From positions 1-52,179 of IMG/VR virus record IMGVR_UViG_3300037721_000093: a DNA stretch of 52,179 nt; one strand, written 5' to 3'. Origin of the DNA: a virus. Taxonomy: Duplodnaviria > Caudoviricetes. Numbering within the stretch: the first letter of the stretch is position 1; every line of letters starts with the position of its first letter. Both the position numbers and the translations under genes were made by a program. Under the pieces are notes generated by a model, which was given only the letters and a program-made list of their open reading frames with translations, did no database searches and was not told the origin of the DNA. Positions 809-50,417 of the stretch are shown here, in pieces.

Positions 809-3274
809 TTAGATGTGCTCGACCGACCACAGCCAGACGTTCTCTTTACCGGCCCACCGAGTGACAAGCCGAACGTTGGCCCGGATTTGGTCTCTGTATC
901 GGCCGAGCAGCTTACCGACTTCCCGAGCGTCGGGTTTAGGCCGCCCGTTCAGGCGAATGAGCTCATTGAATGACTCACGCAGCGCCAGACTCTCTGACCC
1001 GTGTGAGTCGTAGGCCGATGCGATTAGCGCCTTCGCCGAGCGAGCTCCGGTTCGCGTCAATCCGTCGATAGCCGAGAACAACTGGCCGACCGCCTGCTCA
1101 TGGGGGTCAGGAGCTTCCGTCATGCGGCACGAGCGCACATCGCCCCCAGACGCCCACTGAAGCGCGTTTGCGACGAGCAGGCTCCAAGACTCAAACCCCC
1201 CGAGCGTCGCGCCCACACGGGGCCGCCCAGCGCACACGAACGCCCGCAGCAGCACGAGCCCCGCGCGCACCAGCCGAGCGCGGTTCGCCCGCGCCCAAAC
1301 GTGTAGGTCGCCTAGCCGAAAATCTGTCCGCTCTTCAGGGCGCTCGACCGGCGCGATCAAGCGCCCGACGACTGAGCGACGCATCATGTCGGTCGAGAGA
1401 CCGAGATTATTTCCAGTGGCGCTGACGAGCGCTTGCCAAGGGAGCTCGGGCGACTCGCTCTTGCCGAGCACCCGCAGGGAGACCCGCCCGCGGCTCGAGA
1501 GCACACGTTCGAGCGGCTCGCCGCCGAGCTGCCGACGAGAACTCACGTTGTCGAACGCGATGAGCCGAGAGCCGTCCAGGGCCTTCGCCGCTAGGACCTT
1601 CTCGAGCTCTTCGTCGTTCGCCGGGAAGTTCAACTTAGCGAGCGAGCGGCCGGTAAGGATCAAACCGACGACGTCGAGCACGAGCGTCTTGCCGGTGCCG
1701 GGCGTCGACGCATCGAGCGCGTGAAGTGGCACGTCGTCGAGCGCCGCTCGAGCGAGTCCGGAGAGCAGCAAGCTGATCGGCACGAGGATGTGAGCGGGCT
1801 CAGTCCACGGGAACTCGGCCCATGGTTCGACCAGCTCAGCAATCGCAGCCCGGGCGTCGAACAGGGTCGGCTCTGCAGGAATCGCGTCAATCTCAACGCT
1901 CGACTGCAGGAGCCAGCCGCTCGCATGGTCGTAACCGTTCGTCGAGCAAATCGAGCCGTCGGGCCGCATGAATGGGCAATCGGCAATGCCGCGCAGCGCT
2001 CGGACGTTCGGCCAATCTTTTCGGTCGAGCAAGCCAGCAGCCAAATCTCCGGGCGGATCGATTTCTAGCCAGTTTTCTTGACCTTTTTCGGAGATTTTCT
2101 TGATCCAGAACTTCACTCTGTCGAGCTCGCCGTCGCCGCCCGGGCGCTCCGCGGCGCTGAGCTCGCTGCGCGCGGTATTGACGCCGAGCGGCACGACGCC
2201 AAGCGGTTCGCCATCGCCTGGAAGGCGGCTGACCGGCTGGACTTTGACCAGTGAGCCCGCGCGCTGAAAAATCATCGGGCGACTCGCCGCGAGCGTCTCG
2301 AGCTCGTCGACCCGCCGATCGAGTGGGATGAGCAGCTCAGGATCGGCGGCGATGAAGTCGCCCGGCCGCGGAGTGCCGAGCGCGGCTTTGAGCTTCGAGC
2401 TCGAATCAATCCCGAGGTACTTACTCAGGAGATTGCAGGCGCGGCCAATAGCCTGCTTCGAGCCGACCATGTGGGATCGGAGCTTGGGCCAGCCGAAGAT
2501 TCCGTCTTTCCCTGCACGAATGCCTTCGACGGAAGCAAGCACCTGCTCGAGGCGCTCGTCGACGCCAGCGGCTTCGAAGATTTGCGAGGCGAAGTCAACG
2601 ATCTGGTCTTCGCTCCAGTCCGAGCGGCCCATGATGCCGCCGAGCGCGAGCGCGGACTCATACCGGCCCGAATCTTTCGGCCAGACTTTGGCGACCGCGC
2701 TCAGAACTTCGGAGCGCAACGGGAGGTCAGCTTCGCCTGCCTTTTGCTGGAGCGCGACGAGCCTCTCGAGCGCGTCAATCGGCAGGTCCGCAATGTCGCT
2801 CACCAGGAAGGGACGATCCCAGTCGCCGCGCTCGAGCGCATAGCCGCCGCGCCATTTGACGTCGAGCGCCCCGCCTTCGCAGACCGCAGTCTTGGCTCGC
2901 TGTTTCAGCTGCTCTCTGGCCGGGACGTCGCGAACCGCATACCAGAGATGGCGCCCGCCTTTCGACGAGAGCGTTTCGGGCAGCTGACCGACGGCTTTGA
3001 TCAACTCGGCTTTACCGAATTGCCCATCGAGATCCAGGCAAAGCAACTCGCGCTCAGGGAACGTAGAGCACGGCCCGCACAAGATGGCGACCTGATCCGA
3101 GTCGCGAAAATCTTCGGCCGGGACCGAGAACGTGGGATTGACCTTGCCGAAGCCGCCGACCCTAGGCTTCTTCGTTTCGGGCAGAATCGGCACGATTCGC
3201 AGGCCCGCACGCTCGTATCGGAGCGCGATGGCGGGACCGGTCTCGGGATTCGCTTTCCAGTCACGCGCGGTCAT
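809..3274 (-). CDS. Bifunctional primase-polymerase (Prim-Pol) N-terminus fused to a P-loop ATPase/helicase
   Basis: IVPILPETKKP, LCLDLD, GGRHLWY, DVKWRGGY Prim-Pol motifs; Walker A PGTGKT, Walker B IAFDNV, ATGNN; start taken at MTARDWK. Confidence 0.8.
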   Translation of the reverse strand: MTARDWKANPETGPAIALRYERAGLRIVPILPETKKPRVGGFGKVNPTFSVPAEDFRDSDQVAILCGPCSTFPERELLCLDLDGQFGKAELIKAVGQLPETLSSKGGRHLWYAVRDVPAREQLKQRAKTAVCEGGALDVKWRGGYALERGDWDRPFLVSDIADLPIDALERLVALQQKAGEADLPLRSEVLSAVAKVWPKDSGRYESALALGGIMGRSDWSEDQIVDFASQIFEAAGVDERLEQVLASVEGIRAGKDGIFGWPKLRSHMVGSKQAIGRACNLLSKYLGIDSSSKLKAALGTPRPGDFIAADPELLIPLDRRVDELETLAASRPMIFQRAGSLVKVQPVSRLPGDGEPLGVVPLGVNTARSELSAAERPGGDGELDRVKFWIKKISEKGQENWLEIDPPGDLAAGLLDRKDWPNVRALRGIADCPFMRPDGSICSTNGYDHASGWLLQSSVEIDAIPAEPTLFDARAAIAELVEPWAEFPWTEPAHILVPISLLLSGLARAALDDVPLHALDASTPGTGKTLVLDVVGLILTGRSLAKLNFPANDEELEKVLAAKALDGSRLIAFDNVSSRRQLGGEPLERVLSSRGRVSLRVLGKSESPELPWQALVSATGNNLGLSTDMMRRSVVGRLIAPVERPEERTDFRLGDLHVWARANRARLVRAGLVLLRAFVCAGRPRVGATLGGFESWSLLVANALQWASGGDVRSCRMTEAPDPHEQAVGQLFSAIDGLTRTGARSAKALIASAYDSHGSESLALRESFNELIRLNGRPKPDAREVGKLLGRYRDQIRANVRLVTRWAGKENVWLWSVEHI

Positions 3275-3348
3275 TGGGCGGCGTCCGCCGCTAGCCTGCA
3301 ATGCATTCGCTGCAAGCTAGCACAGATTTTCACGGGCGCCCGATCGCC

Positions 3349-13178: not shown

Positions 13179-15158
13179 ATGATGGATCCGCGCGACGAGA
13201 TCAACATTCAAGCCTGCGTCGCAATCGACTCCGAAACGTGTCTCATCCGTGCGGGATTGCCCGCGCCGCCGGTCGTTTGCTTGGCGACCTGGGAAGGCAG
13301 GGAATCCAAACCGGTTCTGTACGGCGCGCATGAGCTCTATCGCCCGCTCGCCGAGCTGCTCGACGATGAGCGCCGCCTGATCGTCGCTCACAACGGCGCG
13401 TATGACTTCGCGTGCTTTCTGGAGTGGTACCCGGATCTCCGGCCAGCGATCTATCGCGCCTATGAAGCGAACCGCATTCTGGACACGATGCTCGCGCAAC
13501 GTATCGTCGAGATCGAGACCGGCGACAAGCGCGGCAAACTCGCGCTCGATCAGCTCTGCGCCCGCTACGGCTTGCACGTCGAGAAAGGCGCGCGCAGCGG
13601 CGGCGACCCGGACGACGAGGACTCGGGCGACGTCATCCGGCTCGGCTTCGGCAAGTTCTGGGGCCGGCCTGCCGCGGAGATCCCTTTAGACTACTCGGAC
13701 TACGCGCTCGGCGACCCGGTCGTCACGTCGAAGCTCTTCGAGCGCATTCTCTCGCGCCAGCTCGTCAAGCGGCGGGACCTGGGCAAGTTCGCGCGCTCTG
13801 ACCTGGCGCTGAAGTTCATCGCCGCGGAAGGTCTCATGTGTGATCCGGAGCGTGTCACGGCGCTCGAGAAGCAAGCCGTCGAGCGTCGCGGCATCCTGAC
13901 GGCCGAGCTCCAAGCGGCGCGGCTCGTGCGCTTCGACCGGAAGTCTCCAGACCCGGTCAAAAACATGGCTCGCATCAAAAAGCGGGTCGCCGAAGCCTTT
14001 GAGCTCCCGCACTCGTTCATCGAAGAACAGCTGACTCGTACTGGCTCGATCAAAAAAGCCGCGCAGTGCGAGTACAATGGTTCCGACGCCTTCTTCGAAG
14101 ACCTGCTGACGCAAGGCGTTCTGACCGAGAAAGGTAACATCTCGACGGGGCGGCTCGTGCTCGAAGAGAGCGGCGATCCACTGCTGGCGGCGTTAGCAGA
14201 GTTCAACGAATGGGGCGCCGTCTGGAATAAAGATCTGCCGATTTTCCGCGCGGCGACCGAAGTCCCTTTTCACACGCGATTCGGCTTCGCGGCAACGACC
14301 CGCACGACTTCATCCGGCCCGAACATTCAGAACTTCCGGAAGAAGGCAGGCATCCGCGAGTGCATCTGGTCGCCCGGGAATGTTCTCGTCGCGACCGATT
14401 ATTCAGGGCTCGAGAACGCAACGCTGGCGCAAGTGATCGCTTGGGTACTCGGACGGAAGGCGCCTGCGGAGAAGTACTCATCAGGCTGGGACGACCACGC
14501 CGACGTCGCGCAGCACATTCTCGGCTGCTCATACGACGAGACGGTCGCGCGCGTTGCCGCTGGCGACAAGGATGCAAAGGAGGCGCGCGGCGCCGCGAAG
14601 CCTCTGAATTTCGGATTGCCCGGCTACATGACACGACCGAGCACGGTGCAGAGCTACGCGCGGATCGGCTATGGCGTGACACGCCCTGTCGAGTTCTGGG
14701 AAGGCATGATCGCGCTCTGGTACCGGACGCAGGTCGACAAGGTCGCCTACCTGAAAGAGTACGTCGACAACTTGAAGGCGGGCTCGACGTACAACGTTCC
14801 GATCCCGTCCACCGGGATCACTCGAAGGGGTGCAACGCGGACGGCAGCCGGAAACACGCCGTTCCAGGGACTCGGCGCCCAGGTCGCGCTAGAGGCGAGC
14901 TATCGAGTCACTCGGGAGCAAATGCTCGGCCGGATGCCGGGCAAGGCATGTGCGTTCGTTCACGACGAGATCATCAGCCGATGTCGGGAAGATCAGGTCG
15001 AAGAGTTGCGCGCGCTGCAAGAGCGAATCATGATTGACGCTGCACAAGACGTCATGCCCGACATTCGCATGCGGGTTGAGAGCGTCGCAATGCGGCACTG
15101 GGCTAAGAATGCGAAGCACAAGGTGATTGACGGAAGGTTGCAGGTCCAAAACGTATGA
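13179..15158 (+). CDS. polA: Family A DNA polymerase with 3'-5' exonuclease domain
   Basis: Exo motifs IDSET, HNGAYD, YALGD; TTRTTSSGPNIQN, motif A DYSGLE, motif B KPLNFG, motif C FVHDEI. Confidence 0.92.
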   Translation: MMDPRDEINIQACVAIDSETCLIRAGLPAPPVVCLATWEGRESKPVLYGAHELYRPLAELLDDERRLIVAHNGAYDFACFLEWYPDLRPAIYRAYEANRILDTMLAQRIVEIETGDKRGKLALDQLCARYGLHVEKGARSGGDPDDEDSGDVIRLGFGKFWGRPAAEIPLDYSDYALGDPVVTSKLFERILSRQLVKRRDLGKFARSDLALKFIAAEGLMCDPERVTALEKQAVERRGILTAELQAARLVRFDRKSPDPVKNMARIKKRVAEAFELPHSFIEEQLTRTGSIKKAAQCEYNGSDAFFEDLLTQGVLTEKGNISTGRLVLEESGDPLLAALAEFNEWGAVWNKDLPIFRAATEVPFHTRFGFAATTRTTSSGPNIQNFRKKAGIRECIWSPGNVLVATDYSGLENATLAQVIAWVLGRKAPAEKYSSGWDDHADVAQHILGCSYDETVARVAAGDKDAKEARGAAKPLNFGLPGYMTRPSTVQSYARIGYGVTRPVEFWEGMIALWYRTQVDKVAYLKEYVDNLKAGSTYNVPIPSTGITRRGATRTAAGNTPFQGLGAQVALEASYRVTREQMLGRMPGKACAFVHDEIISRCREDQVEELRALQERIMIDAAQDVMPDIRMRVESVAMRHWAKNAKHKVIDGRLQVQNV

Positions 15159-16110: not shown

Positions 16111-16580
16111 TCTTCCACATTTGCGACCCTGCGTCGAAGCCAAAAGACCGAGGCTTCGCTTCGAGCGTAGCCAGCCATCTTGTGAAATGGGGCGATAAAC
16201 CTGTCTGCAATATCATCGCCGACTGGGGCGTCGTCGAAGGTCAATGGGCTAATCCGAAGGCGTCGCGCCAGAGTTTGATCACGCTCGCGTCTCGAGCCGG
16301 ATTTTGTTTCACGCTCGTTCCTGCGCGCCGCTACGCGATGATCCCGCCGACAACGGTCCGAGTCGGGAAGCGTAAGTTAAAAGGCTGGAAGGACGTGCTG
16401 ATTCCTGGCTTCGGCAACGCTGCGGGCGACGTCTTTACTCGGAATATCGTCCAGCTGCTCGAGCGCATGAAGCATCCCGCCGCAGGCGAGACGAACCATA
16501 ACGTTTTGGACGCGATCGGCATCGCCCTTGCGATCCAGAAAGCCGGCGAAGAATGGCTCGCCGATTTTGAGATCACATGA
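16107..16580 (+). CDS. RuvC-like Holliday junction resolvase
   Basis: N-terminal ICDP, VVEGQ, WK, C-terminal DAIGIAL. Confidence 0.55.
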   Translation: MIFHICDPASKPKDRGFASSVASHLVKWGDKPVCNIIADWGVVEGQWANPKASRQSLITLASRAGFCFTLVPARRYAMIPPTTVRVGKRKLKGWKDVLIPGFGNAAGDVFTRNIVQLLERMKHPAAGETNHNVLDAIGIALAIQKAGEEWLADFEIT

Positions 16581-18250
16581 AGGCAAAATATACCCGAGCT
16601 CAGCTCGAAGCTGCGGTCGAGAAGCACGGTGGCATCCGCCCGGCAGGGCGCGCACTGAAGCTCAGCGAGGCGACGATTCGAGAACAGCTCGGACGCATGG
16701 GCCGCCGCGTCCGGCTCGTGAACGCGCCACCGCCCGCCGAGACGGGCCGCGTCAGCTACCGCAAGCCGCTCATCATGCCGCTCCCTGCGGAAGGACAGGT
16801 GGCCACTTATATCGTCACTGCGGCGCAGATTTCGACCGAAGTGCACCCGGAGTTCTGGTGGAACCTGCTCGCTTACCGGAAATTCCTAGGTGCGCAGCTG
16901 CTCGCTGCGACGCTGAGCTACGACCAACGGCACTACAGCCGCGCCGATCAGGTCAAGTCGCGCTCTGAAGTTGAGCGCGAGTTGAAAAACCTGACGCCAG
17001 AGCAAAAGCGCAACTGCTCCGCGCTCGGCGTTTGGATCGCCGACGCAGTCAAGCCCTACGTCAGCAACCAGCGAATCAAGCTCGCTCCGACGCTCCAATG
17101 GTGCGGCGAGCTCAATATTCTTCCGACTGCCGTGCGCCCGCTGAACGGGCTCGAAGGCTACACCGGCGCGGACTCGACGATCGTGCCGCATACGAAGCTC
17201 GCGCTGGAAAGCGTCCCGACCGGGCGCTATGAGCCGACGAAGTTCCTCTACTCGACGGGCGCATGTACGTTGCGCAATTACGTCCAGAAGCGCGCGGGCC
17301 AGGTCGCTGAGTTCCACCACGCCTATGCTGCCCTGATCGTCGAAGTGCTCTCTGACGGGCGATGGTTCGTTCGCCAGCTGAACGCGACGAGCGACGGCGC
17401 CTTCCAGGATCTGACCCGGCGCATCTCGGGTGGCCGCGTTACGACGAACGAGCCTGTCGCCGGCATCCAATGGGGCGACATTCACGCCGCGGCGATGGAT
17501 CCGGACGTGCGCGAGCTCTGCTGGTGCCCGCGGCGCCGCGGCGTCGTCAGCGTGATTGACGCGCTTCAGCCGACCTGGCAGTTCTTCAATGACCTGCTTG
17601 ATTTCCACTCGGCGAGCCATCACGAGCGGAAGAGCGCCCGCAAGCGCCATCAGCGTTGGAATCGAAATCAGGCGAACGTTCAGCGCGAAGTCGACGCGAC
17701 GGCCGAGTTCCTGCTCTACTCGAATCGATCCTGGTGTACTGGCATCGTCGTGCCGAGCAACCACGACGAGCACGGCGATCGCTGGCTCGACGAAGGCGAT
17801 CCGCTCGCCGACCCAGCGAACTCGACACTCTGGCACTCCGCGAACGTTGCGGCGCGTCTTGCCGAGGAGCAAGGCGATCACGAGTGGACTTTTGCCCGCT
17901 GGGCCCTGGCTCGAGCTCCCGTGCGGTGGCTGAGGCGCGACGAAGGTTTCGTCTTGCATGAGATCGAGATGGGTTGGCACGGCGACCTAGGGCCCAACGG
18001 AGCTCGCGGCTCGACAGCTTCGCTGATTCGCACTTGCCGACGGCTCTCGAAAGGTCATGATCACGTGGCGACGATTCGCGATGGCGTCTACTCCGCGGGC
18101 GTTTGCGCGCGGACGCTGGACTATGCCCGCGGCCCGAGCAGCTGGAGCATCAGTCACGTGGTGATTTACCCGAACGGGAAGCGCTGTATTTTGACGCAAA
18201 ACGGAAATGCATACTGGGCGCCGCGGGCGCGAAAGCGAGCAGGAAAATGA
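16577..18250 (+). CDS. Calcineurin-like metallophosphoesterase with N-terminal HTH
   Basis: GGIRPAGRALKLSEATIR HTH; GDIH, DLLD, SNHD, HGD, GHDH. Confidence 0.75.
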   Translation: MKAKYTRAQLEAAVEKHGGIRPAGRALKLSEATIREQLGRMGRRVRLVNAPPPAETGRVSYRKPLIMPLPAEGQVATYIVTAAQISTEVHPEFWWNLLAYRKFLGAQLLAATLSYDQRHYSRADQVKSRSEVERELKNLTPEQKRNCSALGVWIADAVKPYVSNQRIKLAPTLQWCGELNILPTAVRPLNGLEGYTGADSTIVPHTKLALESVPTGRYEPTKFLYSTGACTLRNYVQKRAGQVAEFHHAYAALIVEVLSDGRWFVRQLNATSDGAFQDLTRRISGGRVTTNEPVAGIQWGDIHAAAMDPDVRELCWCPRRRGVVSVIDALQPTWQFFNDLLDFHSASHHERKSARKRHQRWNRNQANVQREVDATAEFLLYSNRSWCTGIVVPSNHDEHGDRWLDEGDPLADPANSTLWHSANVAARLAEEQGDHEWTFARWALARAPVRWLRRDEGFVLHEIEMGWHGDLGPNGARGSTASLIRTCRRLSKGHDHVATIRDGVYSAGVCARTLDYARGPSSWSISHVVIYPNGKRCILTQNGNAYWAPRARKRAGK

Positions 18251-18474
18251 ACGAAGAATCGTATAAGAGCGAAATTAGCAATCCGCTTTCCGGCGCTCTC
18301 TCTGTTCGCGCGCGCCAAGCAAAATGTCGAGTGGCCGCGGGTGTTACGCCCGATAAAACCTCGATTCGAGTCGGCGTGCTTTTCAACGGACACGAAACCA
18401 GCGTCGTTTTGACGAAGGAAAACGCGATCACTTTTGCAGGGCACATTTTGAATCTGATCGGAGGTTTGAAATGA
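18247..18474 (+). CDS. Hypothetical protein
   Basis: ATGA-coupled on both sides. Confidence 0.55.
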   Translation: MNEESYKSEISNPLSGALSVRARQAKCRVAAGVTPDKTSIRVGVLFNGHETSVVLTKENAITFAGHILNLIGGLK

Positions 18475-19109
18475 TTTTTTCGCCCTCAGAGTTTGACTCG
18501 CTCCGCGCGCTGGCGTTTCAGCCGGATTACGCTGGATACCGGCCCAACGTCAAAGAAATCCCGAACGGCGACGGCAAGGTCGACGCCGAGAAGCGCTTCT
18601 CGCACGTCGCGTCGAAGTACCTGCGGGGCGATTCGGATTCGCGGCTCTGGCAGGCGCTCTACCGATGCCACGACCGGGCGATGCAGGTCGCCAACCTGCT
18701 TGACTTGCCGTCGGAGTGGCGTCCGAACCTGAACGCCAGCGCGCTCCGGGTGCTCGAGTATCCTCCGGGCGCTGGGAGCGAGCGACACACGGACTTCGAT
18801 CTTTTCACGTTGCTGGCCTACCGCGATCCGCTGGAAGGCCTCGAGATCGAAGGTGATCCGCTCGCCCAGGAACGCCCGGAAGTCGAGCGCACCCTCCAGC
18901 AACTAGCGCCGGGCCTGCACTTCGGCGAGCTCGCGGAGTTCCTGCCCGAGCCAATCGCAGCCAACCCTCACTACGTTGACCCGATGAATCGCTGGCAGTT
19001 CAGCGCGGTATACTTCGCGCTTCCGCATCCGGAAACGAAGCTGCCCGACGGTCGGCTCGTCTCCGGGTGGCTCGCTGAGCGCATCGCGAGAAGCAGGGTT
19101 TACGCATGA
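18471..19109 (+). CDS. 2OG-Fe(II) oxygenase (IPNS-like pattern)
   Basis: LRVLEYPP, HTDFDLFTLL (HxD), GLEI, PHYV (distal His), SAVYFALP; GGAGG SD. Confidence 0.8.
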   Translation: MIFSPSEFDSLRALAFQPDYAGYRPNVKEIPNGDGKVDAEKRFSHVASKYLRGDSDSRLWQALYRCHDRAMQVANLLDLPSEWRPNLNASALRVLEYPPGAGSERHTDFDLFTLLAYRDPLEGLEIEGDPLAQERPEVERTLQQLAPGLHFGELAEFLPEPIAANPHYVDPMNRWQFSAVYFALPHPETKLPDGRLVSGWLAERIARSRVYA

Positions 19110-19231
19110 TCGCAGGTCACAGTCCGATCAAGCTCCGCGGCCTTCCCTGGCTCGTTTGCAAATGCTGCGGGCTGGTCTACTTGCGCAACGAAGCGACGGC
19201 TCGCGCCATCCGGGCAGGGTGTGAAAAATGA
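19106..19231 (+). CDS. 41-aa Cys/His peptide (below ORF track cutoff)
   Basis: Hand-translated MIAGHSPIKLRGLPWLVCKCCGLVYLRNEATARAIRAGCEK; ATGA overlaps at both ends. Confidence 0.6.
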   Translation: MIAGHSPIKLRGLPWLVCKCCGLVYLRNEATARAIRAGCEK

Positions 19232-20271
19232 AGCTCGTGTCCACGACGATCACGAATTCTCGAGCTGACGTCATCGGACCCATGCTCGAAGCGATCGCGC
19301 CGCACGTCGACGCTTGCGTCGTCATCGACACCGGAGCGACGGATGACACGATGAAAATCGCCGCCGAAGTCTGCGGGGCGAAGTTCCGGCCATGGCCTTA
19401 CAAGTGGCCAAATGACTTCGCACAGGCTCGAAACTTTGCGCTCGAGCTCGCGCGCGCCGCCGGCGCGGACTGGGCAATCCAGGCCGACACTGACGAAGTG
19501 TACGACTTCGGCGAAGTCGCCCCGCGCGATTTTCTGCCGTCGCTCGCGCCCGAAAAAGCTGTCGTCGTCATTCCGCATGTCTCGCGCGGCTTCGGCCAGC
19601 CGAGGTGCATCCGAACGTCCGCCGACGTCCGCTGGAACGAGCCGGTGCACGAGTATCTCGGCGGCTACGATCCTGTGAGGCAGTCCGCTCCGGCGCCGAG
19701 CGCCTGGAATTGGGCGACTGTTGACCGGCCCGGCGAAGACCTTGACGCGAAATATCGCGGCTACGTCAAGATCCTGGAAAAGCGAACACGAGAGCGTCCG
19801 GAAATCGCTCGGTCCTGGTACTACCTCGGCGACTCGTACTGCAACGTCCGGATGCACGCGAATGCGCTGGCGGCCTGGGATCGGCGCGTTCGAGTCCAGA
19901 AAGTCGAGCGCCTGCGGGGCTCCTACTGGGAAGCCGGCTGGGCGGCGTGGCGTGCGGCGGTTCTTCGGTATGAGCTCGGCAAGCCACTAGAGGCGCTGGC
20001 GACCTGCAAGCGCGGACTTGAAGTCGTGCCGCACATGATTGAGCTCGCCTGGTTTTCAGGCTGGCTGGAGTATCAAGGCGGCAACTTCGCTCAGGCACTC
20101 TACTGGGCAAATCATGCTCTCGCGCTACCGCTGATCGATCGTCAAGGCGGATTTTCATACGCCCGGGCGCACCGGACTTTGCCGCTGGAGCTGAAACGTT
20201 GGGCCGAGCATCAGATTACAGCTGGCGCGGCGCCGGGGCGAGATGCTACGTCAAACGAGTGTCAGCCCTGA
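19228..20271 (+). CDS. GT2 (GT-A) glycosyltransferase with C-terminal TPR repeats
   Basis: VVIDTGATDDT, W.NDFAQARNFAL, DTDE, W..PVHE; TPR-like RSWYYLGDSY, LYWANHAL. Confidence 0.88.
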   Translation: MKLVSTTITNSRADVIGPMLEAIAPHVDACVVIDTGATDDTMKIAAEVCGAKFRPWPYKWPNDFAQARNFALELARAAGADWAIQADTDEVYDFGEVAPRDFLPSLAPEKAVVVIPHVSRGFGQPRCIRTSADVRWNEPVHEYLGGYDPVRQSAPAPSAWNWATVDRPGEDLDAKYRGYVKILEKRTRERPEIARSWYYLGDSYCNVRMHANALAAWDRRVRVQKVERLRGSYWEAGWAAWRAAVLRYELGKPLEALATCKRGLEVVPHMIELAWFSGWLEYQGGNFAQALYWANHALALPLIDRQGGFSYARAHRTLPLELKRWAEHQITAGAAPGRDATSNECQP

Positions 20272-20546
20272 TATTTTATACCGCCGTTGTGATGTTTTTT
20301 ACGGCGTTCATTCGCGCGTGCCTGGGATGGCGACGCGCTCACACCCGCGCCATTGAAGCTGATGCTCGGCGCGCTGTTGCCGAGGCTGCGCATGGCGACC
20401 TTTGCCGCGCAGTCTTTGCCGGACAGCCAAACGTAACTGATTCGCGCGTCAGGCTTGTGCAGTTGAGCCCGCAATCGATCGTTGACGCCTATCGATCAGG
20501 CACACTTCCGCGGCTCAAATTGCTCGACGAGCGCGGGCGCGGCTAA
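20259..20546 (+). CDS. Membrane-anchored hypothetical protein
   Basis: N-terminal TM segment; last gene of the rightward operon. Confidence 0.5.
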   Translation: MSALIFYTAVVMFFTAFIRACLGWRRAHTRAIEADARRAVAEAAHGDLCRAVFAGQPNVTDSRVRLVQLSPQSIVDAYRSGTLPRLKLLDERGRG

Positions 20547-20909
20547 TTGCCAGCCGAGCGCGCGGCGCAGTTCAGCGGTCGGATAGTGAATCTTCACCGC
20601 AGTGTCGCCGCGCTTGCCTCGGTCAAACAGCCAGACAATCTCTCGTCGGTAGGCCAGCTTTTTCAGCTGGTAGTGCGCGAGTTGCCGCGAGAGCCCGGTC
20701 GCATCGACGACATCGCGCACCGAGAGCGGGCCGTCGGCGACCCGCAAAAGAGCGAGTATCAATCTCTGATGGCGCTCGGAAGCGCCGCGATTCGGGCTGG
20801 CGTAGTTTGGTTTTCGCTTTTTGCTGGTCGGATTTTTCGCGCGTAGCTCGCGAATTTCGGACGATCGGATGGCTCGAGCCTGGGGCGGAAATTGAATCGG
20901 GTCGTTCAT
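20496..20909 (-). CDS. Winged-HTH DNA-binding protein
   Basis: ILALLR..GPLSVRDVVDATGLSRQLAHYQLKKL; own TTGACC..TGCTATCT promoter at 20917-20946. Confidence 0.7.
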   Translation of the reverse strand: MNDPIQFPPQARAIRSSEIRELRAKNPTSKKRKPNYASPNRGASERHQRLILALLRVADGPLSVRDVVDATGLSRQLAHYQLKKLAYRREIVWLFDRGKRGDTAVKIHYPTAELRRALGWQLAAPALVEQFEPRKCA

Positions 20910-21020
20910 GCGCGTGTAGATAGCAAGCGCCGCGCCGAACGGTCAAGTCCTGGAAATGTGGATCCGCGCGCCCGAAATTGGGACGCTTTGCCGCGGCCTT
21001 CTCGCCGCAGCCGCGGCGAA

Positions 21021-21326
21021 TCAGCGCAGTCGAGTTGACGCGATGCCGATCGGCCCGGTCGAGCCCGCCGCAACAGCGCGAGCGACAAGCTGTCGCGCTA
21101 GCGCCGTGGCGGCGTCAAAGTCACCGCCGTTGACATCGATTTTCACTTCAGCTTCGCCGCCGTCCGCATGAACGCGCCTAATAATCACTTGCGAAGGCGT
21201 CGGCGCGGGCGTCGCGATCGACTGAGCGACGGCTTCCGCCGCGAGCACGTCTAGCGCTTGCGCCGCCGTCAACTGTCGCGAGCCGACGGCTGCTTTCAGG
21301 TCTTCGAGAATTCTGCTCAGATCCAT
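21021..21326 (-). CDS. Hypothetical protein
   Basis: AAGGGGG SD; end of the late operon. Confidence 0.55.
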   Translation of the reverse strand: MDLSRILEDLKAAVGSRQLTAAQALDVLAAEAVAQSIATPAPTPSQVIIRRVHADGGEAEVKIDVNGGDFDAATALARQLVARAVAAGSTGPIGIASTRLR

Positions 21327-21341
21327 TTTCTTGCCCCCTTC

Positions 21342-22703
21342 TTACGGGTATGCTTCGATCACAATTTCCCCGCGGCCGCCCGCTCCGCCCGTTCCGCCCG
21401 TCGCCGTGCCGCCTGATCCGGAGCGCTGCGCGCCGCCGCCTCCGCCGCCGCCGCCACCTGGGATTCCGCCCGCGCCGCCTTCGCCGCCCGTGCCGCCGAA
21501 GTTCGCACCGCCGCCGCTCCCGCCGCCGCCGCCACCCCCGCCGCCGGAGTGATCACTTGTGTCAATTGAGTTCGCGCCATCAGTGCCGTCGCCGCCGGCC
21601 AACGTCGTTGAGCTCGAGCCGCCAGCACTGCCGCCGCCTGTCGTGAGGGGCAACTTCCCACTCGCTCCGCCGGCGCCGGCGCTCGTCGCGGTGCCAGTAT
21701 TTTGCCCGGATGCCCCGCCGCCGCCGCCGAACCTAGAGCTCCCGCCAGTAAAAGCGGTGGATGAGCCGCTGCCTCGGCCTGCTCCAGATGCTCCGCCGTA
21801 CCAGGCCTCTTGGCCGTTGGTATTTTCCGTTCCGGATTTTCCAGCGCCGCCAAAGCCGACGTTGTCTTGCGCCGTCGCGATGCAAGGTGCGCCGCCGACA
21901 ATCGAGTTTGCTCCTGCTCCGATGCCGTTCCCGCCGCGGCCGCCGCCGCTTCCGCCGTCATGCTCTGAAGACGAGTTCGCTCGACCGCCGCCGCCTGCGC
22001 CCGCGAAAAGAAACACGATGCCATTCGCGCCGATCATCGTTGTCGCGCTCGCGGGCATCCCGCCGATCGTGCCGGCGACGAGAGTGTCAGCGGCGTTGGT
22101 GCGCGATGCGCCCGCGCCGCCCGCGCCGCCCGCAGGGATCGTGAAAGTGATCGGAAGTCCTGCGATGATTTGAGCTCGAGAAATCAAGCGTTCGTCAAAA
22201 GCACCGCCGCCGGCGCCAGCGCCGCCAATTCCTGCGTTGACGCCGCCGCCAGCACTTCCGCCGCCGCCGCCGCCGCCCGGGCCGATGGCGACACCGCGAA
22301 ATAGATCGCCGTCGGGAACATCGTTTTCGTCCGTCCAGACTGTATCGGCCGTTATGACGGTGCGCGAATTGTAGCCATCATCCGTTCCGGTCGCCACCGC
22401 GAATATGCCAGTCGGGCCGGTCGGTCCCGTGCCGCCGGTCGGGCCGGTCGGTCCCGTGCTACCCGTGCCGCCGGTCGGGCCGGCTGCTCCAGCAGCGCCC
22501 GCCGGACCTTCCGGGCCCGTAGCTCCATCGATGCCCGCCGGGCCCGTAGCACCCGCAACTCCGGCGCCCGTCGCGCCGTCGGCGCCGCTCGGTCCGCGCG
22601 GACCCATGGGACCCGTCGAGCCGCGCTCGACGCGAATCCGCCGAGCCTCGATCACAGTCTCGACTTCGATCTCGCCGTTGATCGGGCGCCGTCGGAGAGT
22701 CAT
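21342..22703 (-). CDS. Collagen-like, glycine-rich tail fibre
   Basis: 23 Gly-X-Y triplets (12 with Thr at Y, one interruption), then a poly-Gly domain ending [14 protein letters not shown]. Confidence 0.8.
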
Positions 22704-22704
22704 T

Positions 22705-23307
22705 TCAGCGCGTCCCTTCCAGCGTACCGCTTTTTACGACCAGAACTTTGGCCGACCGGATGACGCCCGGCGGCGGGCTATCGCCGACCGGGAACGGAGT
22801 GCGCGCGAAGTTGAGGCCCGCCTTCAAGCGTCGGACGCAGCGGAAGCCGTTCTGGACGTTCGCTCCAAAGGTCATCACTTCGTCATCGTCGACGCCCGCG
22901 ACGAGCTCGATGTGACCGAAGCCGCCGCCCGTCGGGAACCACGCCAAGTCCCCGGGCTGGGGCGATTCCGTCGCGGGAAAGCGCCGTCCGAGTAGCACCG
23001 CGGACGCGATACGGACGCGCGGGACGGCAATCCAGCACGACGCCGCCGCCGCGCAGTAGGCGGCTGGGTAATTGATGCCGCATTCGGCCAGGTAATCTCG
23101 AATGATGCCGTCCGGGTCAACGTTCGCGCCCGTCTCGAGTACGCCAAGGTGCCGCTGAGCTCTGCGCACGGCCATCTGACGCTCGACCGGCTGGAGCGCC
23201 ATCGCCATCGCCCATTGGGTCTCGGGTCCGGCATGGCCGTCAATCGTCAGCGGGACGCCGAGATGATTGACGAGAGCGCGCTGGACGGCTCTGATCTCGG
23301 CGCTCAT
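22705..23307 (-). CDS. Endolysin: peptidoglycan-binding domain plus CHAP/NlpC-like peptidase
   Basis: [14 protein letters not shown]; AAYCAA (Cys), PQPGDL, GHIELV (His), GAN. Confidence 0.75.
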
Positions 23308-23606
23308 ACGAAGATTGAGAGCAGCGCATCAATCAACTTACCGGCCTGTCCGGCATGCTGGGGGGCCAGCGCAGCGAGCGCGCCCGCGGCGACGGCGCCG
23401 AGCGTCCGAGCGGTCGCGAGCTTCTTCGAGCTCGTTACCGTTTGGCTCAGCACAGCTCGCACGTCCTTCGTCAGCAAGTCGACCTTACCTTCGAGCTGCC
23501 CGACGCGGCGCGCGAGCGACTGGGGCTCAGAGTCGACCACTTCGACGCGCTGCGAAGGCAGAGTCGACTCTTCAGGGACTTCATCATATCGTTGCATCGC
23601 AATCAC
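23304..23606 (-). CDS. Coiled-coil plus C-terminal hydrophobic protein (holin-like candidate)
   Basis: Directly upstream of the endolysin; GTGA/ATGA overlaps. Confidence 0.45.
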   Translation of the reverse strand: MIAMQRYDEVPEESTLPSQRVEVVDSEPQSLARRVGQLEGKVDLLTKDVRAVLSQTVTSSKKLATARTLGAVAAGALAALAPQHAGQAGKLIDALLSIFV

Positions 23607-26843: not shown

Positions 26844-27665
26844 TCAGTTAGGAGCGCTTCGGGCTGGATCGATTCGCTCTGGATTTCCGTCGTTCTCGTC
26901 GTCGCGTTCATACTCAGAGTGATCGGAAGTTTTGATGAAGTCGAGAGCGTCAATGCAGGTCTCGACGAGATTTTCGTAGGACGCAACAATACATGTATGC
27001 CGCCAAGCCGCTGCTTCGCCGTAGACATCCGACTCGGTCACCACGAGCGCGCCGCGTGCGATGGCCGGCGCGACGCGGAACGTCTCGAAGACGCCCGGCT
27101 CATAGTAATGCAGATTGAGCACGAGCTTTGATCTGGACTGCAGCGCTGCGAGCTCTGCACCGAAGACCGGTGCCGCGGGGCCGACGACACAGACTGACGC
27201 GCCGCGCTCTTTGAGCGCGTGAAGGACGCGGGCGCGGCGCGAGTTGATCGAGCCTGCGAAGAGCACATCGATCGGCGCCTCTGCGTCGCATGAGTCGTCT
27301 TTCGGCGGCTCGCAGCGCGGCGGAAGGGGAATGTCTCCGAAGCGCCGCGCGTTTGCGCGCGAGTAGTTCAACCATGGCCGACGAAGCGCTGCCCGAGCCC
27401 GCTCGCTCGGTTCGCGGTGCGGACCGTCGGCGAGAACGTTCTCCGTTTCGTACGGCATGACGTGCGGCGCGCGCGCCATCTTGCCCCAAGTCTCGGGACA
27501 CCGCGCGACGCCGAAGATGATCTCAGTGCGACCAGTCGCGGGCGCCCAGTCTGCTGGGGTAACGGTCCGGATAATGTCGCCCGGCTCGCTCAGGTAGGGA
27601 AGAGCATCGAGATAACACTCGTGCCAAGGGTGCGCGAGCACCGTCCAGACTCGAGCGCCGGTCAT
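26844..27665 (-). CDS. GT-B glycosyltransferase embedded in the baseplate module
   Basis: IDVLFAGSINSRRARVL, SKLVLNLHYY...FETFRV...GALVVTE. Confidence 0.8.
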   Translation of the reverse strand: MTGARVWTVLAHPWHECYLDALPYLSEPGDIIRTVTPADWAPATGRTEIIFGVARCPETWGKMARAPHVMPYETENVLADGPHREPSERARAALRRPWLNYSRANARRFGDIPLPPRCEPPKDDSCDAEAPIDVLFAGSINSRRARVLHALKERGASVCVVGPAAPVFGAELAALQSRSKLVLNLHYYEPGVFETFRVAPAIARGALVVTESDVYGEAAAWRHTCIVASYENLVETCIDALDFIKTSDHSEYERDDENDGNPERIDPARSAPN

Positions 27666-27829
27666 TCTTCGCCCCAAGCTGGATCGGGTAGGCTCGGCGG
27701 GGGGTCCTCATCAATGAAGTAGGTTGGGCCTTCGCCTGCGACCGGGATGGGCGAACCTTTCTCGTCAAAAAACAGCGCGTGCATTAAATTGTCAACGTTA
27801 CCGCGGTAAATTACAACCCGAAGCTTCAC
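27662..27829 (-). CDS. Small hypothetical protein
   Basis: GTGA and ATGA overlaps with neighbours. Confidence 0.5.
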   Translation of the reverse strand: MKLRVVIYRGNVDNLMHALFFDEKGSPIPVAGEGPTYFIDEDPPPSLPDPAWGEE

Positions 27830-39125: not shown

Positions 39126-39620
39126 TTACGCGCCGGTCGGGCCAGTGGGTCCGGTCGGACCGGTTGCGCCGGTCGGGCCGAGCGCGCCGGAGGGCAGGGG
39201 CCACATCGTGAAAACGTGGACGCCGTATGAGTCGACGTCTTCGATGCGCCCGGCGACTGTATTCGCGCCGGTTGCGCCGCTGATGCCGACCGTCTGGTCG
39301 TCGACGACATAGGCGTTTTGGCCGCGGTGCGCGACCGTGATAGCCTCGTACGTGCCGCCGCTCACCCAGATGAAGGCGCCCGACTTGACTTTGACGCGCC
39401 GAGTGTTGCTCGTGCCGGTCAGAACATTCTCTTCGCAGCGCCCGACGACCTGGATCGTCAAGTCGCCGGCGGTCGCGCCCATCAGCTTGCCGTCGTCAAG
39501 ATCGACGCCGACCAACTGTCCCTTGTAGAACTGCGTCGAGTCCTTCGCCAGGATGTGATGATACTGCGCGGCCGGGTGCGCGCGCTCTTTAGTGTCCCGG
39601 TTGTCGCTGAGGAATGCCAT
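39126..39620 (-). CDS. Capsid decoration/cement protein with C-terminal collagen-like tail
   Basis: FYKG.LV, G...Y.VDDQTV, AGRI.DVD..GV.V; ends [17 protein letters not shown]. Confidence 0.8.
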   Translation of the reverse strand: MAFLSDNRDTKERAHPAAQYHHILAKDSTQFYKGQLVGVDLDDGKLMGATAGDLTIQVVGRCEENVLTGTSNTRRVKVKSGAFIWVSGGTYEAITVAHRGQNAYVVDDQTVGISGATGANTVAGRIEDVDSYGVHVFTMWPLPSGALGPTGATGPTGPTGPTGA

Positions 39621-41080: not shown

Positions 41081-41617
41081 TCATTCTGACCCAGCGGCCG
41101 AGAAGTTAGAGTTGACGAGTCTGTACGTTCGGGCGCGGGCGTACTGAACGAGCTCGACGTCGGAGATCTCGAGGCCCCATTTCTTGCCCTGACGCTTGAT
41201 CCGAGTTGTCGCCAGCTTGACGACCGACCCGTCGAAGACCGCCTTCGACGGCAAATCGCGCACGAGCGCGCCGAGTTCGCCGGACGCGACGTCCTGGATG
41301 TTATTCCCGGGCTCAAAGACATTCAGGAAGTAGCGGCGCGCGTCGCTGACGCAATAGCTGATTTTCAGCTGCAGCAAAACAGTCTCGCCGCCCGCCGTCG
41401 TCAGCGATTGCGGATCGCATATACACGCGCTCGAGCGCCCGTCGACAATCTCGGCGACCTGGATCCCGAAGGGCCAATGAAACGTCAGCCCTGTTTTCAT
41501 ATCTTTTGAGGGCTTGCCGAGCGTCCGAATGAAACCGAGCTCTTCGGCGTTCAAAACCGCCCAGAATTTGAAAAACTTGGCGAAATCAACGAAGAGTCCA
41601 ATAAGGCGGTCGATCAT
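41081..41617 (-). CDS. SPFH/Band 7 domain protein
   Basis: E.G....LGK....GL.F.WPFGI, QSLTT, WGLEI.DV. Confidence 0.8.
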   Translation of the reverse strand: MIDRLIGLFVDFAKFFKFWAVLNAEELGFIRTLGKPSKDMKTGLTFHWPFGIQVAEIVDGRSSACICDPQSLTTAGGETVLLQLKISYCVSDARRYFLNVFEPGNNIQDVASGELGALVRDLPSKAVFDGSVVKLATTRIKRQGKKWGLEISDVELVQYARARTYRLVNSNFSAAGSE

Positions 41618-48086: not shown

Positions 48087-48301
48087 GCAACGCCAAAGTC
48101 AGAGCTCGCCGCCGACGGCGCAACGCCCGCGCCGCGCGGAACGAGCGAGCGCGTTTCATCGCGAGCGTCGATTGGCCTGACGCGATCCGGCGCTTCTACG
48201 CCGGCCGTCCGCTTCCGCTACGCACCCGAGCGTGGGTCAAAATGCTGACATTCGGCGAGCGAATGTTTTTCGGCGGTCTCACAAGAAAGGTCCCTCAATA
48301 A
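48083..48301 (+). CDS. Small Arg-rich protein
   Basis: GGAGG SD; overlaps with neighbours. Confidence 0.55.
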   Translation: MSNAKVRARRRRRNARAARNERARFIASVDWPDAIRRFYAGRPLPLRTRAWVKMLTFGERMFFGGLTRKVPQ

Positions 48302-48828
48302 TGCACGCTAGTGTTCTGTCCTTCATCGAACGGTTCGCGCCCGACGTGCGCGGCAGGTCAATTCTCGAAGTCGGCTCGAAGAATATCAACGGCTCGGTCC
48401 GGTCCGTTCTCGAGCCGCGCGAGCCGTCGAGCTACGTCGGGATCGATGTCGAGCCGGGTGAAGGTGTCGACCGAGTGACGAGCGTCGAGCAGATGGCTTT
48501 TCAAACAGAAGTTTGCGGTCGGCCTTTTGACATCGTCGTCTCAGCCGAGATGCTAGAGCACGCGCAAGATTGGCATGCGGCTTTTCGCGCGATGGCCGAG
48601 CTGCTCGTGCCCGGCGGCTGGCTGCTCCTGACGACGCGCAGCGAGGGTTTTCCGTACCACAACCCCCCCGACTACTGGCGCTTCGATGCCGCGACGCTGG
48701 AGCAGGCGGCGCGCGCGTGCGGGCTGCTCGTCGTCAACCTGGATCCGGACCCGCAGGTGCCCGGGATTTTCCTCAAAGCGATGAAGCTGAAAATGCCCGC
48801 GGCGCTCGCGATGCCGCAGCCTACCTAA
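48301..48828 (+). CDS. Class I SAM-dependent methyltransferase (not a DNA MTase type)
   Basis: ILEVGS..INGS.R, YVGID..PG.GVD, FD.VVS.E.LEH, L.PGG.L, FPYH..P.DYWRF. Confidence 0.85.
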   Translation: MHASVLSFIERFAPDVRGRSILEVGSKNINGSVRSVLEPREPSSYVGIDVEPGEGVDRVTSVEQMAFQTEVCGRPFDIVVSAEMLEHAQDWHAAFRAMAELLVPGGWLLLTTRSEGFPYHNPPDYWRFDAATLEQAARACGLLVVNLDPDPQVPGIFLKAMKLKMPAALAMPQPT

Positions 48829-49574: not shown

Positions 49575-50417
49575 GTGAAAAACCTTGCCGCTCTCTTCGC
49601 CTTGGCTCTCGGCGGATGCGCCGCCGGCCACGACTTCACCCGCGTCGAAGTTGAATTCGATGCCCCGCTCGTCGCGCACGTCGAGCTGATTGATCCGCCG
49701 GTCTCCGAAGAGACTTTCGAGCAGTTTGAGATCGATCCGCCCGCGGAGCAATTCCACGGCGGCGTCGCGATCAAAGGCTACGGCAACGAAGCGGGCGGCA
49801 AGATTTACCTGCAAGATGGCGGCGAGACGACCTGGGCGTTTGCCGTCGACGTCCCGCCGACCGCCGAGCAGCTCGCTTCCGCCCGGCGGACTTTCGCTCG
49901 CCTGAGCGAGCTGCTTCCAAATTGGACCTTCGTCGAGCTGCCCGCGCACAACGGCCAGACCGATATCGTCCTGCAGCTCTCCGACCCGGAGAAGCGCGGC
50001 AGCGAAGGCTGCTACGACGCGCTCGCGTCGGGCGCATGCTGGTTTGCCAGCGCCCGTTGCGCGAAGGTCATCAGCGTCCCGACGGGCGACCCTGACGTGA
50101 AGGTGTGCGAGCAGTCTTCGATCAGCATCGGCCAGCACGGCGTCGACGGCTTCGCCGAATCCGCCGAGCTCGACCGCGCCGTCGTCTGGGACGCGATGTT
50201 CCTGCACGAGATCGGCCACACTCTCGGACTTGATCACGCGCCGCGCTCGACGGGATCGATCATGAAGGCGAAGCTGCCGATCGAAGGCTGGCTCGGCCGC
50301 GCCGAGCAAGCGACTTTCAGCGCATGCGAGCTCGCTCAGCTGCGCGGCTACTATCCGATGCCCGGCGCCGAGGCGCCATTAGCGTGGCATGACGCGCCGG
50401 AATGTGAGGAATTATGA
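49575..50417 (+). CDS. Lipoprotein metzincin (matrixin-like) zinc protease
   Basis: MKNLAALFALALGGC lipobox; HEIGHTLGLDH and Met-turn SIM. Confidence 0.85.
   Translation: MKNLAALFALALGGCAAGHDFTRVEVEFDAPLVAHVELIDPPVSEETFEQFEIDPPAEQFHGGVAIKGYGNEAGGKIYLQDGGETTWAFAVDVPPTAEQLASARRTFARLSELLPNWTFVELPAHNGQTDIVLQLSDPEKRGSEGCYDALASGACWFASARCAKVISVPTGDPDVKVCEQSSISIGQHGVDGFAESAELDRAVVWDAMFLHEIGHTLGLDHAPRSTGSIMKAKLPIEGWLGRAEQATFSACELAQLRGYYPMPGAEAPLAWHDAPECEEL

Follow-up and report, generated by a model that had tools for sequence, protein, structure and literature searches.

A phage GT2-TPR glycosyltransferase of SgtA-like architecture near collagen-like Gly-X-Thr repeats: a candidate system for glycosylation of virion proteins

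The virus record IMGVR_UViG_3300037721_000093 (IMG/VR; Caudoviricetes) has a length of 52,179 bp, and the whole of it was analysed here and is referred to as the window. On its plus strand, at positions 19228–20271, it encodes a 347 amino acid (aa) glycosyltransferase of the GT-A type (family GT2) with a C-terminal domain of tetratricopeptide repeats (TPR), and about 1 kb further on, at 21342–22703 of the minus strand, a 453 aa collagen-like protein with Gly-X-Thr repeats. We lean towards the reading that this GT2-TPR protein is a phage SgtA-like transferase aimed at Gly-X-Thr repeats, a counterpart of the SgtA/BclA3 pair of Clostridioides difficile, and we propose it as an initiating protein O-glycosyltransferase. 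The enzyme has the fold and the conserved catalytic motif of a GT-A glycosyltransferase, it is homologous to transferases encoded beside collagen-like genes, and the linkage between the two kinds of gene recurs across its family.

Results

Fold and relatives of the GT2-TPR transferase

The single sequence of the window transferase stays below the Pfam gathering score for GT2 (PF00535; 20.8 bits against a cut-off of 23.3), with TPR_1 at 18.7, and it matches phrog_13126, 'beta-1,4-glycosyltransferase', at 1.7e-19. A total of 26 homologues with 40–60% identity were found, many of them on contigs of about 50 kb, and one more with 30% identity; PF00535 appears in the precomputed annotation of nine of the 26 close homologues (P0002–P0027). 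A tblastn search against phage records gave nine records, none above 37% identity. Throughout the 27-sequence transferase alignment D87-T-D89-E90 and H141-E142 are invariant, D87-T-D89 being the DXD motif.

In the AlphaFold model (pLDDT 92.8), residues 1–165 form a GT-A domain and residues 172–332 are helical, with at least seven TPR-like helices, and the GT2-TPR architecture proposed for this gene in the original prediction was thereby confirmed. The catalytic half combines the GT-A fold with the DXD motif and aligns with SunS, WrtF, TarS and SpsA. When the family profile was searched, the only glycosyltransferases ranking above generic TPR proteins were GmaR (1.4e-19), SunS (3.9e-16 and 6.6e-16) and ThuS (1.3e-6). 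Foldseek likewise placed SunS and ThuS at the top (5.6e-16 to 1.4e-13), the next transferase being TarS at 8.8e-7. VIA-align superposed the model on SunS 7msp with Z 24.8 (root mean square deviation 2.5, 271 residues aligned, model residues 1–282), on SunS 7msn with Z 24.0 (281 aligned, model residues 1–335) and on ThuS 7msk with Z 23.9, whereas the match following these reached Z 16.7 and covered the catalytic half only. Both domains of the transferase are thus superposed as one chain on SunS and ThuS. The NCBIfam equivalog model of SunS (TIGR04195) scored 16.2 bits against a cut-off of 350, and judged by its sequence the transferase is a distant relative of SunS and not a SunS equivalog. In both profile and structure comparisons the enzyme grouped with the protein and peptide glycosyltransferases SunS, ThuS and GmaR, not with enzymes modifying DNA or lipopolysaccharide (LPS).

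Linkage of transferase and collagen-like genes in the family

The neighbourhoods of transferase relatives were collected from the best 80 of 395 viral, the best 80 of 562 metagenome and the best 80 of 584 genome confirmed relatives. Clustering of these 240 loci at 90% identity of the transferase open reading frame (ORF) removed 43 near-duplicates and left 197 non-redundant loci. A collagen-like ORF, defined as one of at least 100 aa with at least six Gly-X-Y triplets, was present in the flank of 43 of them (viral 21/61, metagenome 12/61, genome 10/75). At most 200 nucleotides (nt) separate the nearest such ORF from the transferase in 13 loci, and the number rises to 24 at 1 kb and to 27 at 1.5 kb. 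If these ORFs were placed uniformly, 8.1 of the 43 would be expected within 1 kb, where 24 were observed (binomial p 7e-8), and 22 of these 24 are on the same strand as the transferase (p 4e-5). Gly-X-Thr made up 740 of the 1,706 triplets (43%) in the collagen-like neighbours. For the refuting condition named in the original prediction, relatives that keep the transferase but lack collagen repeats, the outcome is mixed: many relatives, including the eight closest readable ones, which are bacterial chromosomal, have no collagen gene nearby.

The clade of the window transferase was aligned by hhalign with ten collagen-adjacent transferases of 357–396 aa, giving a probability of 99.9% and an E-value of 8e-32 over residues 8–333 (302 columns). 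A FastTree phylogeny was made from 62 of the 64 full-length relatives together with the 27-sequence alignment; the two relatives not included have matches that span over 1.3 kb. Its support values are local ones, and a number of rows are long-branched. The sister group of the window clade (support 100) includes two loci, L086 and L089, with collagen genes 102 and 398 nt downstream, as well as two jumbo-phage loci whose collagen genes lie at distances of 1.8–6.4 kb and a bacterial clade in which there are none. Collagen linkage is found on either side of the deepest split of the tree.

In one locus of the bacterial clade nearest to the phage clade (L081:1285-1869), the GT2-TPR gene is followed directly by an ORF for a lipoprotein-like product that has a Ser/Gly-rich stretch and may be a substrate. 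Small ORFs directly downstream of GT2-TPR were also seen in L082 and L162.

Collagen-like fibre and head-protein tail

The proposed substrate is the Gly-rich product (33% Gly) of the last large gene of the late operon (21342–22703, minus strand). Its collagen-like segment (aa 28–101; 22401–22622, minus strand) harbours seven uninterrupted Gly-X-Y triplets (aa 28–48) and, after a break of two residues, 17 more (aa 51–101, the last one being GIF). The fibre with Gly-X-Y repeats that the original prediction had put about 1 kb from the transferase was found as described, with 24 triplets counted, 12 of them Gly-X-Thr. The segment is devoid of Lys and has Pro solely in the X position. The stop codons of the transferase and fibre genes are 1,071 nt apart; the genes are convergent and have two small minus-strand genes between them, one for a winged-helix protein (20496–20909) and a 101 aa ORF (21021–21326).

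The fibre gene starts 1 nt past the stop codon of a CHAP endolysin gene, and the label 'tail fibre' is based only on PHROG matches within the collagen segment (aa 19–120) and on Atlas leads. No Pfam family matched the fibre even at an E-value of 10, PF01391 included, and this missing PF01391 match is probably due to composition filters. The non-collagen part of the fibre (aa 102–453; 21342–22400, minus strand) likewise has 33% Gly, as many as nine of them in a row, and its Atlas leads are phage 'Gly_rich_2' proteins, often with collagen repeats (score 0.82, a lead only).

A second candidate substrate is a 164 aa head protein (phrog_1731), whose gene (39126–39620, minus strand) is flanked by those for the protease/scaffold and the major capsid protein. 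As had been predicted, it ends in a Gly-X-Thr tail, which consists of five C-terminal triplets (39135–39188, minus strand). By a six-frame scan of the window for runs of at least five Gly-X-Y triplets, collagen-type repeats were detected in the fibre and the head protein only; what else it picked up was a chance succession of five triplets in the A1-like gene and, in the Gly-rich C-terminal part of the fibre, a stretch of Gly alone. Gly-X-Thr motifs numbered 15 in the fibre and eight in the head protein, against at most five in each of the 35 other proteins. Among 150 representatives of the head-protein family, 80 of which are 170 aa or shorter, four have C-terminal Gly-X-Thr tails (4–13 triplets), the closest representative (56% identity) being one of these, and one or two such triplets remain at the C-terminus of three near relatives. 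At this length the tails could not form a triple helix that is stable; this would suit a tag, and such a role is what we infer for the tail in the window. The contigs of the head-protein relatives are short (1.2–18.8 kb) and none was matched to a transferase contig. A complex prediction with the transferase alignment and fibre residues 1–110 scored 0.00, where the mark is 0.32, and folded the partner poorly; it is evidence neither way.

Candidate extending and capping enzymes

The original prediction had placed a second, GT-B type glycosyltransferase among the baseplate genes, which would extend the chain, and a methyltransferase elsewhere, which would cap it. Adjoining the baseplate J gene there is indeed a gene for a Glyco_trans_1_2-like (GT-B type) protein with a PF13524 match (26844–27677, minus strand), but the score is marginal (25.7 bits against a cut-off of 25, aa 148–216 only) and its homologues, of about 245 aa, are short for a full GT-B enzyme. 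No solved structure was matched by its sequence. Its Atlas structural neighbours include PF13524 clusters (TM 0.74) and, as leads only, clusters with Methyltransf_11/23 or GT2. The class I S-adenosylmethionine (SAM) methyltransferase (Methyltransf_23/11) is present at 48232–48828 on the plus strand and could be a sugar methylase, a link that remains weak.

What can be said of extension and capping comes indirectly, by domain fusions and analogous operons elsewhere. Annotation of 26 collagen-adjacent loci (L080, a near-copy of L077, was excluded) revealed a class I methyltransferase domain associated with a GT2 or GT2-TPR cassette gene in seven, fused in L013, L024, L022, L044 and L077 and adjoining in L111 and L124. 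Further transferases were present in nine of the 26. The most elaborate arrangement was that of Paeniclostridium hominis (L195:1-7317), where a (GPT)64 collagen-like gene faces an operon with the order GT2+GT-B fusion, GT-B, GT2+GT-B fusion and 354 aa GT2-TPR. This locus has the look of a full enzyme set for building the glycan of a BclA-like protein and may by analogy serve as a natural model of 'initiator plus extenders'. One relative of the GT-B-like protein adjoins a GT2-TPR homologue (L259), and both transferases apparently co-occur in relatives of the window phage, as suggested by equal-sized contigs of 43,361 and 51,098 bp. By analogy, a three-enzyme scheme of initiator, extender and cap is plausible.

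In L013:9419-11056 and L024:9446-11059, single phage proteins of 537–545 aa combine class I methyltransferase, GT2 and TPR and are encoded directly after collagen-like genes. A 2,166 aa collagen-like protein is followed by three GT2-type genes in a row in L044, and in L022 a GT-B gene sits between the capsid and adaptor genes. Relatives of the GT-B-like protein are fused to C-terminal TPR (P0171, P0178) or to GT25 (P0214), the first two representing a second transferase family with acquired TPRs. Another relative, P0182, which its source names a methyltransferase, has no Pfam domain, and its C-terminal part shares 24% identity over 101 aa with the window methyltransferase (pairwise E 2e-4). 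Orthology of the window methyltransferase to the fused methyltransferase domains was considered and rejected, the similarity being generic.

The oxygenase upstream of the transferase

Upstream of the transferase, a 212 aa protein with the double-stranded beta-helix (DSBH) fold of Fe(II) oxygenases is encoded at 18471–19109 on the plus strand. The gap of 118 nt between the two genes is occupied by a 41-codon Cys-rich ORF (19106–19231, plus strand), the ATG of which overlaps the oxygenase stop codon (ATGA) while its own stop codon overlaps the transferase ATG (ATGA). The translational linkage of oxygenase and transferase claimed in the original prediction thus exists as a chain of ATGA overlaps but is indirect, running through this small ORF, and such tight coupling is the rule across the operon. 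The ORF product, MIAGHSPIKLRGLPWLVCKCCGLVYLRNEATARAIRAGCEK, has four Cys.

The oxygenase had no match in Pfam, PHROG or NCBIfam. Its model (pLDDT 94.6) displays the DSBH fold of IPNS-type 2-oxoglutarate (2OG) oxygenases, with Z 12.4–14.5 to 50 entries of that class, and H106, D108 and H167, the HxD...H iron triad, are invariant in 43 oxygenase sequences. In the IPNS-type class an Arg-x-Ser motif about ten residues past the distal His binds the C5 carboxylate of 2OG. The window oxygenase has an invariant Q176-x-S178 there and invariant R204 and R209 further on; because Q176-x-S178 replaces the expected Arg-x-Ser, the use of 2OG is only putative. The best VIA-align matches were tied: the nucleotide halogenase 7w5s at Z 14.5, the ethylene-forming enzyme at about 14, thymine-7-hydroxylase at 13.8 and AdaV at about 13; the oxygenase has HxD and not the halogenase motif. 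No collagen prolyl or lysyl hydroxylase was found in the 50 best VIA rows or in the Foldseek list, which does not exclude such kinship.

The oxygenase family is large, with at least 396 homologues of about 210 aa. In 14 viral loci (of the set L241–L255), 78 ORFs around the oxygenase were annotated, and its neighbours included PolA, primase-polymerase, PD-(D/E)XK nuclease, exonucleases, dNMP kinase, ThyX, three dUTPase/dCTP-deaminase-like genes, NT5C, QueC, a MazZ-like gene and ligase. No oxygenase homologue was present in the 240 transferase loci and no transferase in the 15 oxygenase loci. The pair is apparently kept in the three nearest relatives, as equal-sized contigs suggest (one contig being 3,463 bp), which fits synteny by descent. 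Because of its neighbours, its fold matches and the two zero co-occurrence counts, the oxygenase is assigned, with probability rather than certainty, to a nucleotide/DNA module. Although co-translated with the transferase, it most likely acts on a nucleotide or another small molecule and not on collagen, and may be a nucleotide or base hydroxylase. A part for it in the collagen system is not supported, and it was detached from the main reading.

Genome layout

The window is organised in two converging blocks which meet between 20.3 and 21.3 kb. The plus-strand block (about 4.1–20.3 kb) encodes an exonuclease, HNH and PD-(D/E)XK nucleases, a family A polymerase, a MazZ-like diphosphohydrolase, a cupin and a T5 A1-like protein, and closes with the oxygenase and then the GT2-TPR transferase; a primase-polymerase gene lies upstream of it (809–3301, minus strand). 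The minus-strand block harbours terminase, Mu-type portal, protease, gpT capsid, sheath, tape measure and baseplate J, followed by the GT-B-like gene, three unassigned proteins of 282–431 aa, the CHAP endolysin and lastly the collagen-like protein. By Pfam, the Mu-like head (portal, protease, gpT, Gp36) and the contractile tail agree with the Mu-like myovirus of the original prediction, but replication depends on PolA and primase-polymerase genes instead of a transposase.

Positions 18000–23400 gave no blastn match among 50,697 phage records. A scan of 18000–23500 returned no promoter-like sites and three terminator-like sites against 5.6 expected and was uninformative, and PADLOC found nothing meaningful in seven proteins of the region. 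The gene at 16577–18250 (plus strand) encodes a 557 aa protein matching phrog_1745, 'DNA transfer protein' (1.2e-143), with 36–38% identity in three viral contigs; with the T5 A1-like gene as anchor, three viral loci were retrieved which otherwise had nothing in common with the window. The gene of the MazZ-like protein, with a dATP/dGTP diphosphohydrolase domain (PF18909; 15155–15634, plus strand), shares 4 nt with the family A polymerase gene (13179–15158, plus strand), at the end of the latter. A PurZ-like gene was absent from the Pfam scan of window proteins, so that a 2-aminoadenine genome is not indicated. Other genes observed encode an SPFH/Band 7 protein within the head gene block (41081–41617, minus strand) and a protein with a zincin-type (matrixin/reprolysin-like) peptidase motif near the right end (49575–50417, plus strand).

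Discussion

The most likely course of glycosylation in this phage may be depicted as follows. The transferase would be a soluble, metal-dependent GT-A enzyme whose TPR domain docks the protein substrate. Late in infection it would take a nucleotide sugar from the host and attach the sugar in O-linkage to Thr in the Y position of Gly-X-Thr. Its substrates would be the 12 Gly-X-Thr triplets of the 453 aa fibre and the five in the Gly-Pro-Thr (GPT) tail of the head protein, and the virion would come to carry glycans on fibre and head alike. Elongation of the sugar may fall to the Glyco_trans_1_2-like protein of the baseplate/fibre gene block, and its methylation to the class I methyltransferase. 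Priming of Thr by the GT2-TPR enzyme, as originally predicted, gains from its kinship with protein glycosyltransferases, its SgtA-like architecture and the collagen linkage at the family level, but loses from the many relatives without a collagen gene.

A number of observations weigh against an SgtA-like role of the transferase. A collagen-like ORF was missing from the flank in 154 of the 197 loci, and of the 64 full-length relatives just 12 have one within 1 kb. The eight closest readable relatives (35–37% identity) are located in bacterial contigs beside housekeeping genes and without collagen genes, several of these contigs being only 2–6 kb long, and the linkage counts come from relatives other than the 26 close homologues with 40–60% identity. 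The two genes of the window point towards each other where its early and late operons meet, whereas 22 of 24 linked pairs elsewhere are co-oriented, and the proximity of transferase and fibre here could be an accident of genome layout. The fibre is presumed to be part of the virion, and its gene follows an endolysin gene. The methyltransferase gene is 28 kb away, and the likeness of its product to the fused domains is no more than generic (28% over 109 aa, E 6e-5; two other comparisons not significant). The likeness to SgtA is one of size, domain order and, less clearly, gene context and not of direct sequence alignment, and every step of the mechanism is a proposal from sequence, models and gene context.

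The contrast with control loci was also weak, and the control set was small. The controls were 34 non-redundant loci retrieved with the oxygenase, the GT-B-like or the A1-like protein as anchor; with the same regular expression, six of them had a collagen ORF anywhere in the flank, compared with 21 of 61 viral transferase loci (Fisher p 0.10), and one had it within 1 kb, compared with 10 of 61 (Fisher p 0.09). Two of the six control matches looked spurious on inspection, one was a GNE run inside the anchor ORF, and only when this low-complexity match was set aside did control adjacency fall to 0/34 (p 0.013). The solid signals are for this reason the position and orientation within loci, and not the contrast between sets.

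Four other explanations were weighed. The transferase might be a protein glycosyltransferase for another target, such as a different phage protein or a flagellin, pilin or surface lipoprotein of the host, with the nearby fibre a coincidence. The enzymes it resembles do have such targets, GmaR-type enzymes modifying flagellin and SunS and ThuS small peptides, and the 154 loci lacking a collagen-like ORF, the closest readable relatives in bacterial chromosomes without collagen genes, the lipoprotein-like ORF downstream in L081 and the convergent genes of the window all agree with this explanation. We nevertheless find it unlikely, given that collagen genes are adjacent and co-oriented across the family, that the transferase is homologous from end to end with collagen-adjacent enzymes and that Gly-X-Thr repeats occur here in exactly two proteins of the structural module. 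It is improbable that the enzyme modifies an envelope glycan of the host (LPS, capsule or teichoic acid) and so blocks superinfection or alters receptors in the manner of seroconverting phage transferases. The transferases of phage conversion modules usually lie near tail-fibre genes, and the GT2 enzymes TarS and TarP are among the fold matches of the catalytic half, both of which count for this explanation. The model, however, is that of a soluble GT-A and TPR protein in which no membrane segment was noticed, its TPR half and whole chain match SunS and ThuS, 8 Z units over the TarS-type matches, and a scan of 51 window proteins revealed no flippase or GtrA-like partner.

The oxygenase and the transferase could instead act in succession on DNA or nucleotides, the former hydroxylating a base and the latter glycosylating it, as in base J. 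The chained translation of oxygenase, 41-codon ORF and transferase would suit such hypermodification, as would the apparent presence of both genes in the three closest relatives (from equal-sized contigs), the company of PolA, dUTPase/dCTP-deaminase-like, ThyX, dNMP kinase, NT5C and MazZ-like genes around the oxygenase family, and the fold matches at Z 13–14.5 to the nucleotide halogenases 7w5s and AdaV and to thymine-7-hydroxylase, tied though these are with the ethylene-forming enzyme. Against this, neither gene turned up in the loci collected for the other (240 for the transferase, 15 for the oxygenase), the relatives of the transferase are protein and peptide enzymes with a protein-binding TPR domain, and ATGA coupling is common to the whole operon, so that we regard hypermodification as quite improbable. 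That the transferase is catalytically dead and serves as a TPR chaperone or scaffold in fibre assembly is very improbable indeed. TPR proteins are often assembly factors and the single sequence does fall under the Pfam GT2 cut-off, but the DXD motif and other residues of the catalytic half are invariant in 27 homologues down to 30% identity, and the GT-A half was modelled with high confidence.

An SgtA-like action on Gly-X-Thr repeats, the reading preferred here, may be compared with known systems. According to the portions of PMC7157674 drawn upon, SgtA of C. difficile has 358 aa with a GT-A domain at 1–260 and TPR at 262–358, the gene for it sits just upstream of that of the spore exosporium glycoprotein BclA3, and it adds beta-O-linked N-acetylglucosamine (GlcNAc) to Thr of the BclA3 GPT repeats from UDP-GlcNAc with Mn2+. 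As far as those portions describe it, the phage system agrees in the order GT-A then TPR and in the length of about 350 aa (347 in the phage). Its Gly-X-Thr collagen-like gene is less clearly a counterpart of the Gly-Pro-Thr-rich one beside SgtA. It differs in that the phage genes are convergent and 1 kb apart in a phage genome, whereas those of C. difficile are co-transcribed in a spore locus, and in that the phage has a second candidate substrate, the short tail on the head protein. SunS and ThuS (7msn, 7msp, 7msk) are the best structural match over the whole chain, with GT-A and helical-repeat halves and a profile E-value of about 4e-16, but identity is 12–18% and they act on Cys or Ser of small antimicrobial peptides; no gene for such a peptide was identified in the window. 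The best sequence match of the catalytic half, at 1.4e-19, was GmaR of Listeria (PDB 22ao, catalytic part). GmaR is described in the consulted part of PMC9638930 as a flagellin O-GlcNAc transferase in which TPR with a proposed substrate-docking role follow the transferase domain; like the enzyme proposed here it acts on a filament protein, but it has 637 aa and an antirepressor domain and is directed at flagellin.

Mimivirus L230 and chlorovirus A064R are instances of virus-encoded glycosylation of virus-encoded structural proteins. L230, a transferase joined to a hydroxylase, hydroxylates Lys and glucosylates the hydroxylysine, and A064R is a transferase joined to a methyltransferase. The phage system differs from L230 in that the collagen segment has no Lys and the oxygenase is, as far as tested, not of the prolyl/lysyl hydroxylase kind. 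In mycobacteriophages, according to PMC12619734, which cites Freeman et al. 2023, phage transferases glycosylate the C-termini of capsid and tail-tube subunits, to which the C-terminal tail of the head protein would be a parallel; the passage on this in PMC12619734 mentions no collagen-like acceptor. No phage system of the kind proposed here was found in the literature, but most subscription journals were outside the scope of the search and its absence is accordingly unproven.

More tentatively, and with some doubt, we suggest that many tailed phages make glyco-collagen fibres, in which an SgtA-like initiator, a Glyco_trans_1_2-like extender and a methyltransferase cap would build a methylated O-glycan on the Thr of Gly-X-Thr. 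The GPT tail would then be a portable glycosylation tag that brings head proteins into the coat, and the Thr glycans would take the place of hydroxyproline as stabilisers of the triple helix, besides shielding the virion. It is equally speculative, as part of the same proposal, that initiator, extender and cap are the separate enzymes of the window and the fused ones found elsewhere.

Phage fibres commonly contain collagen-like segments, and the usual view of these is that they are plain trimerisation rods. If an SgtA-like enzyme does modify them, the stability of the fibre, its receptor contacts and its antigenicity would hinge on a modification which is not seen by sequence annotation, and this would be relevant to the prediction of phage host range, to the immune recognition of therapeutic phages and to the recognition of such phages in general. 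A soluble enzyme set together with short Gly-Pro-Thr acceptor tags would be of use in protein glycoengineering. The chemistry of SgtA and BclA3 would be extended from spores to viruses, to this one and apparently to many.

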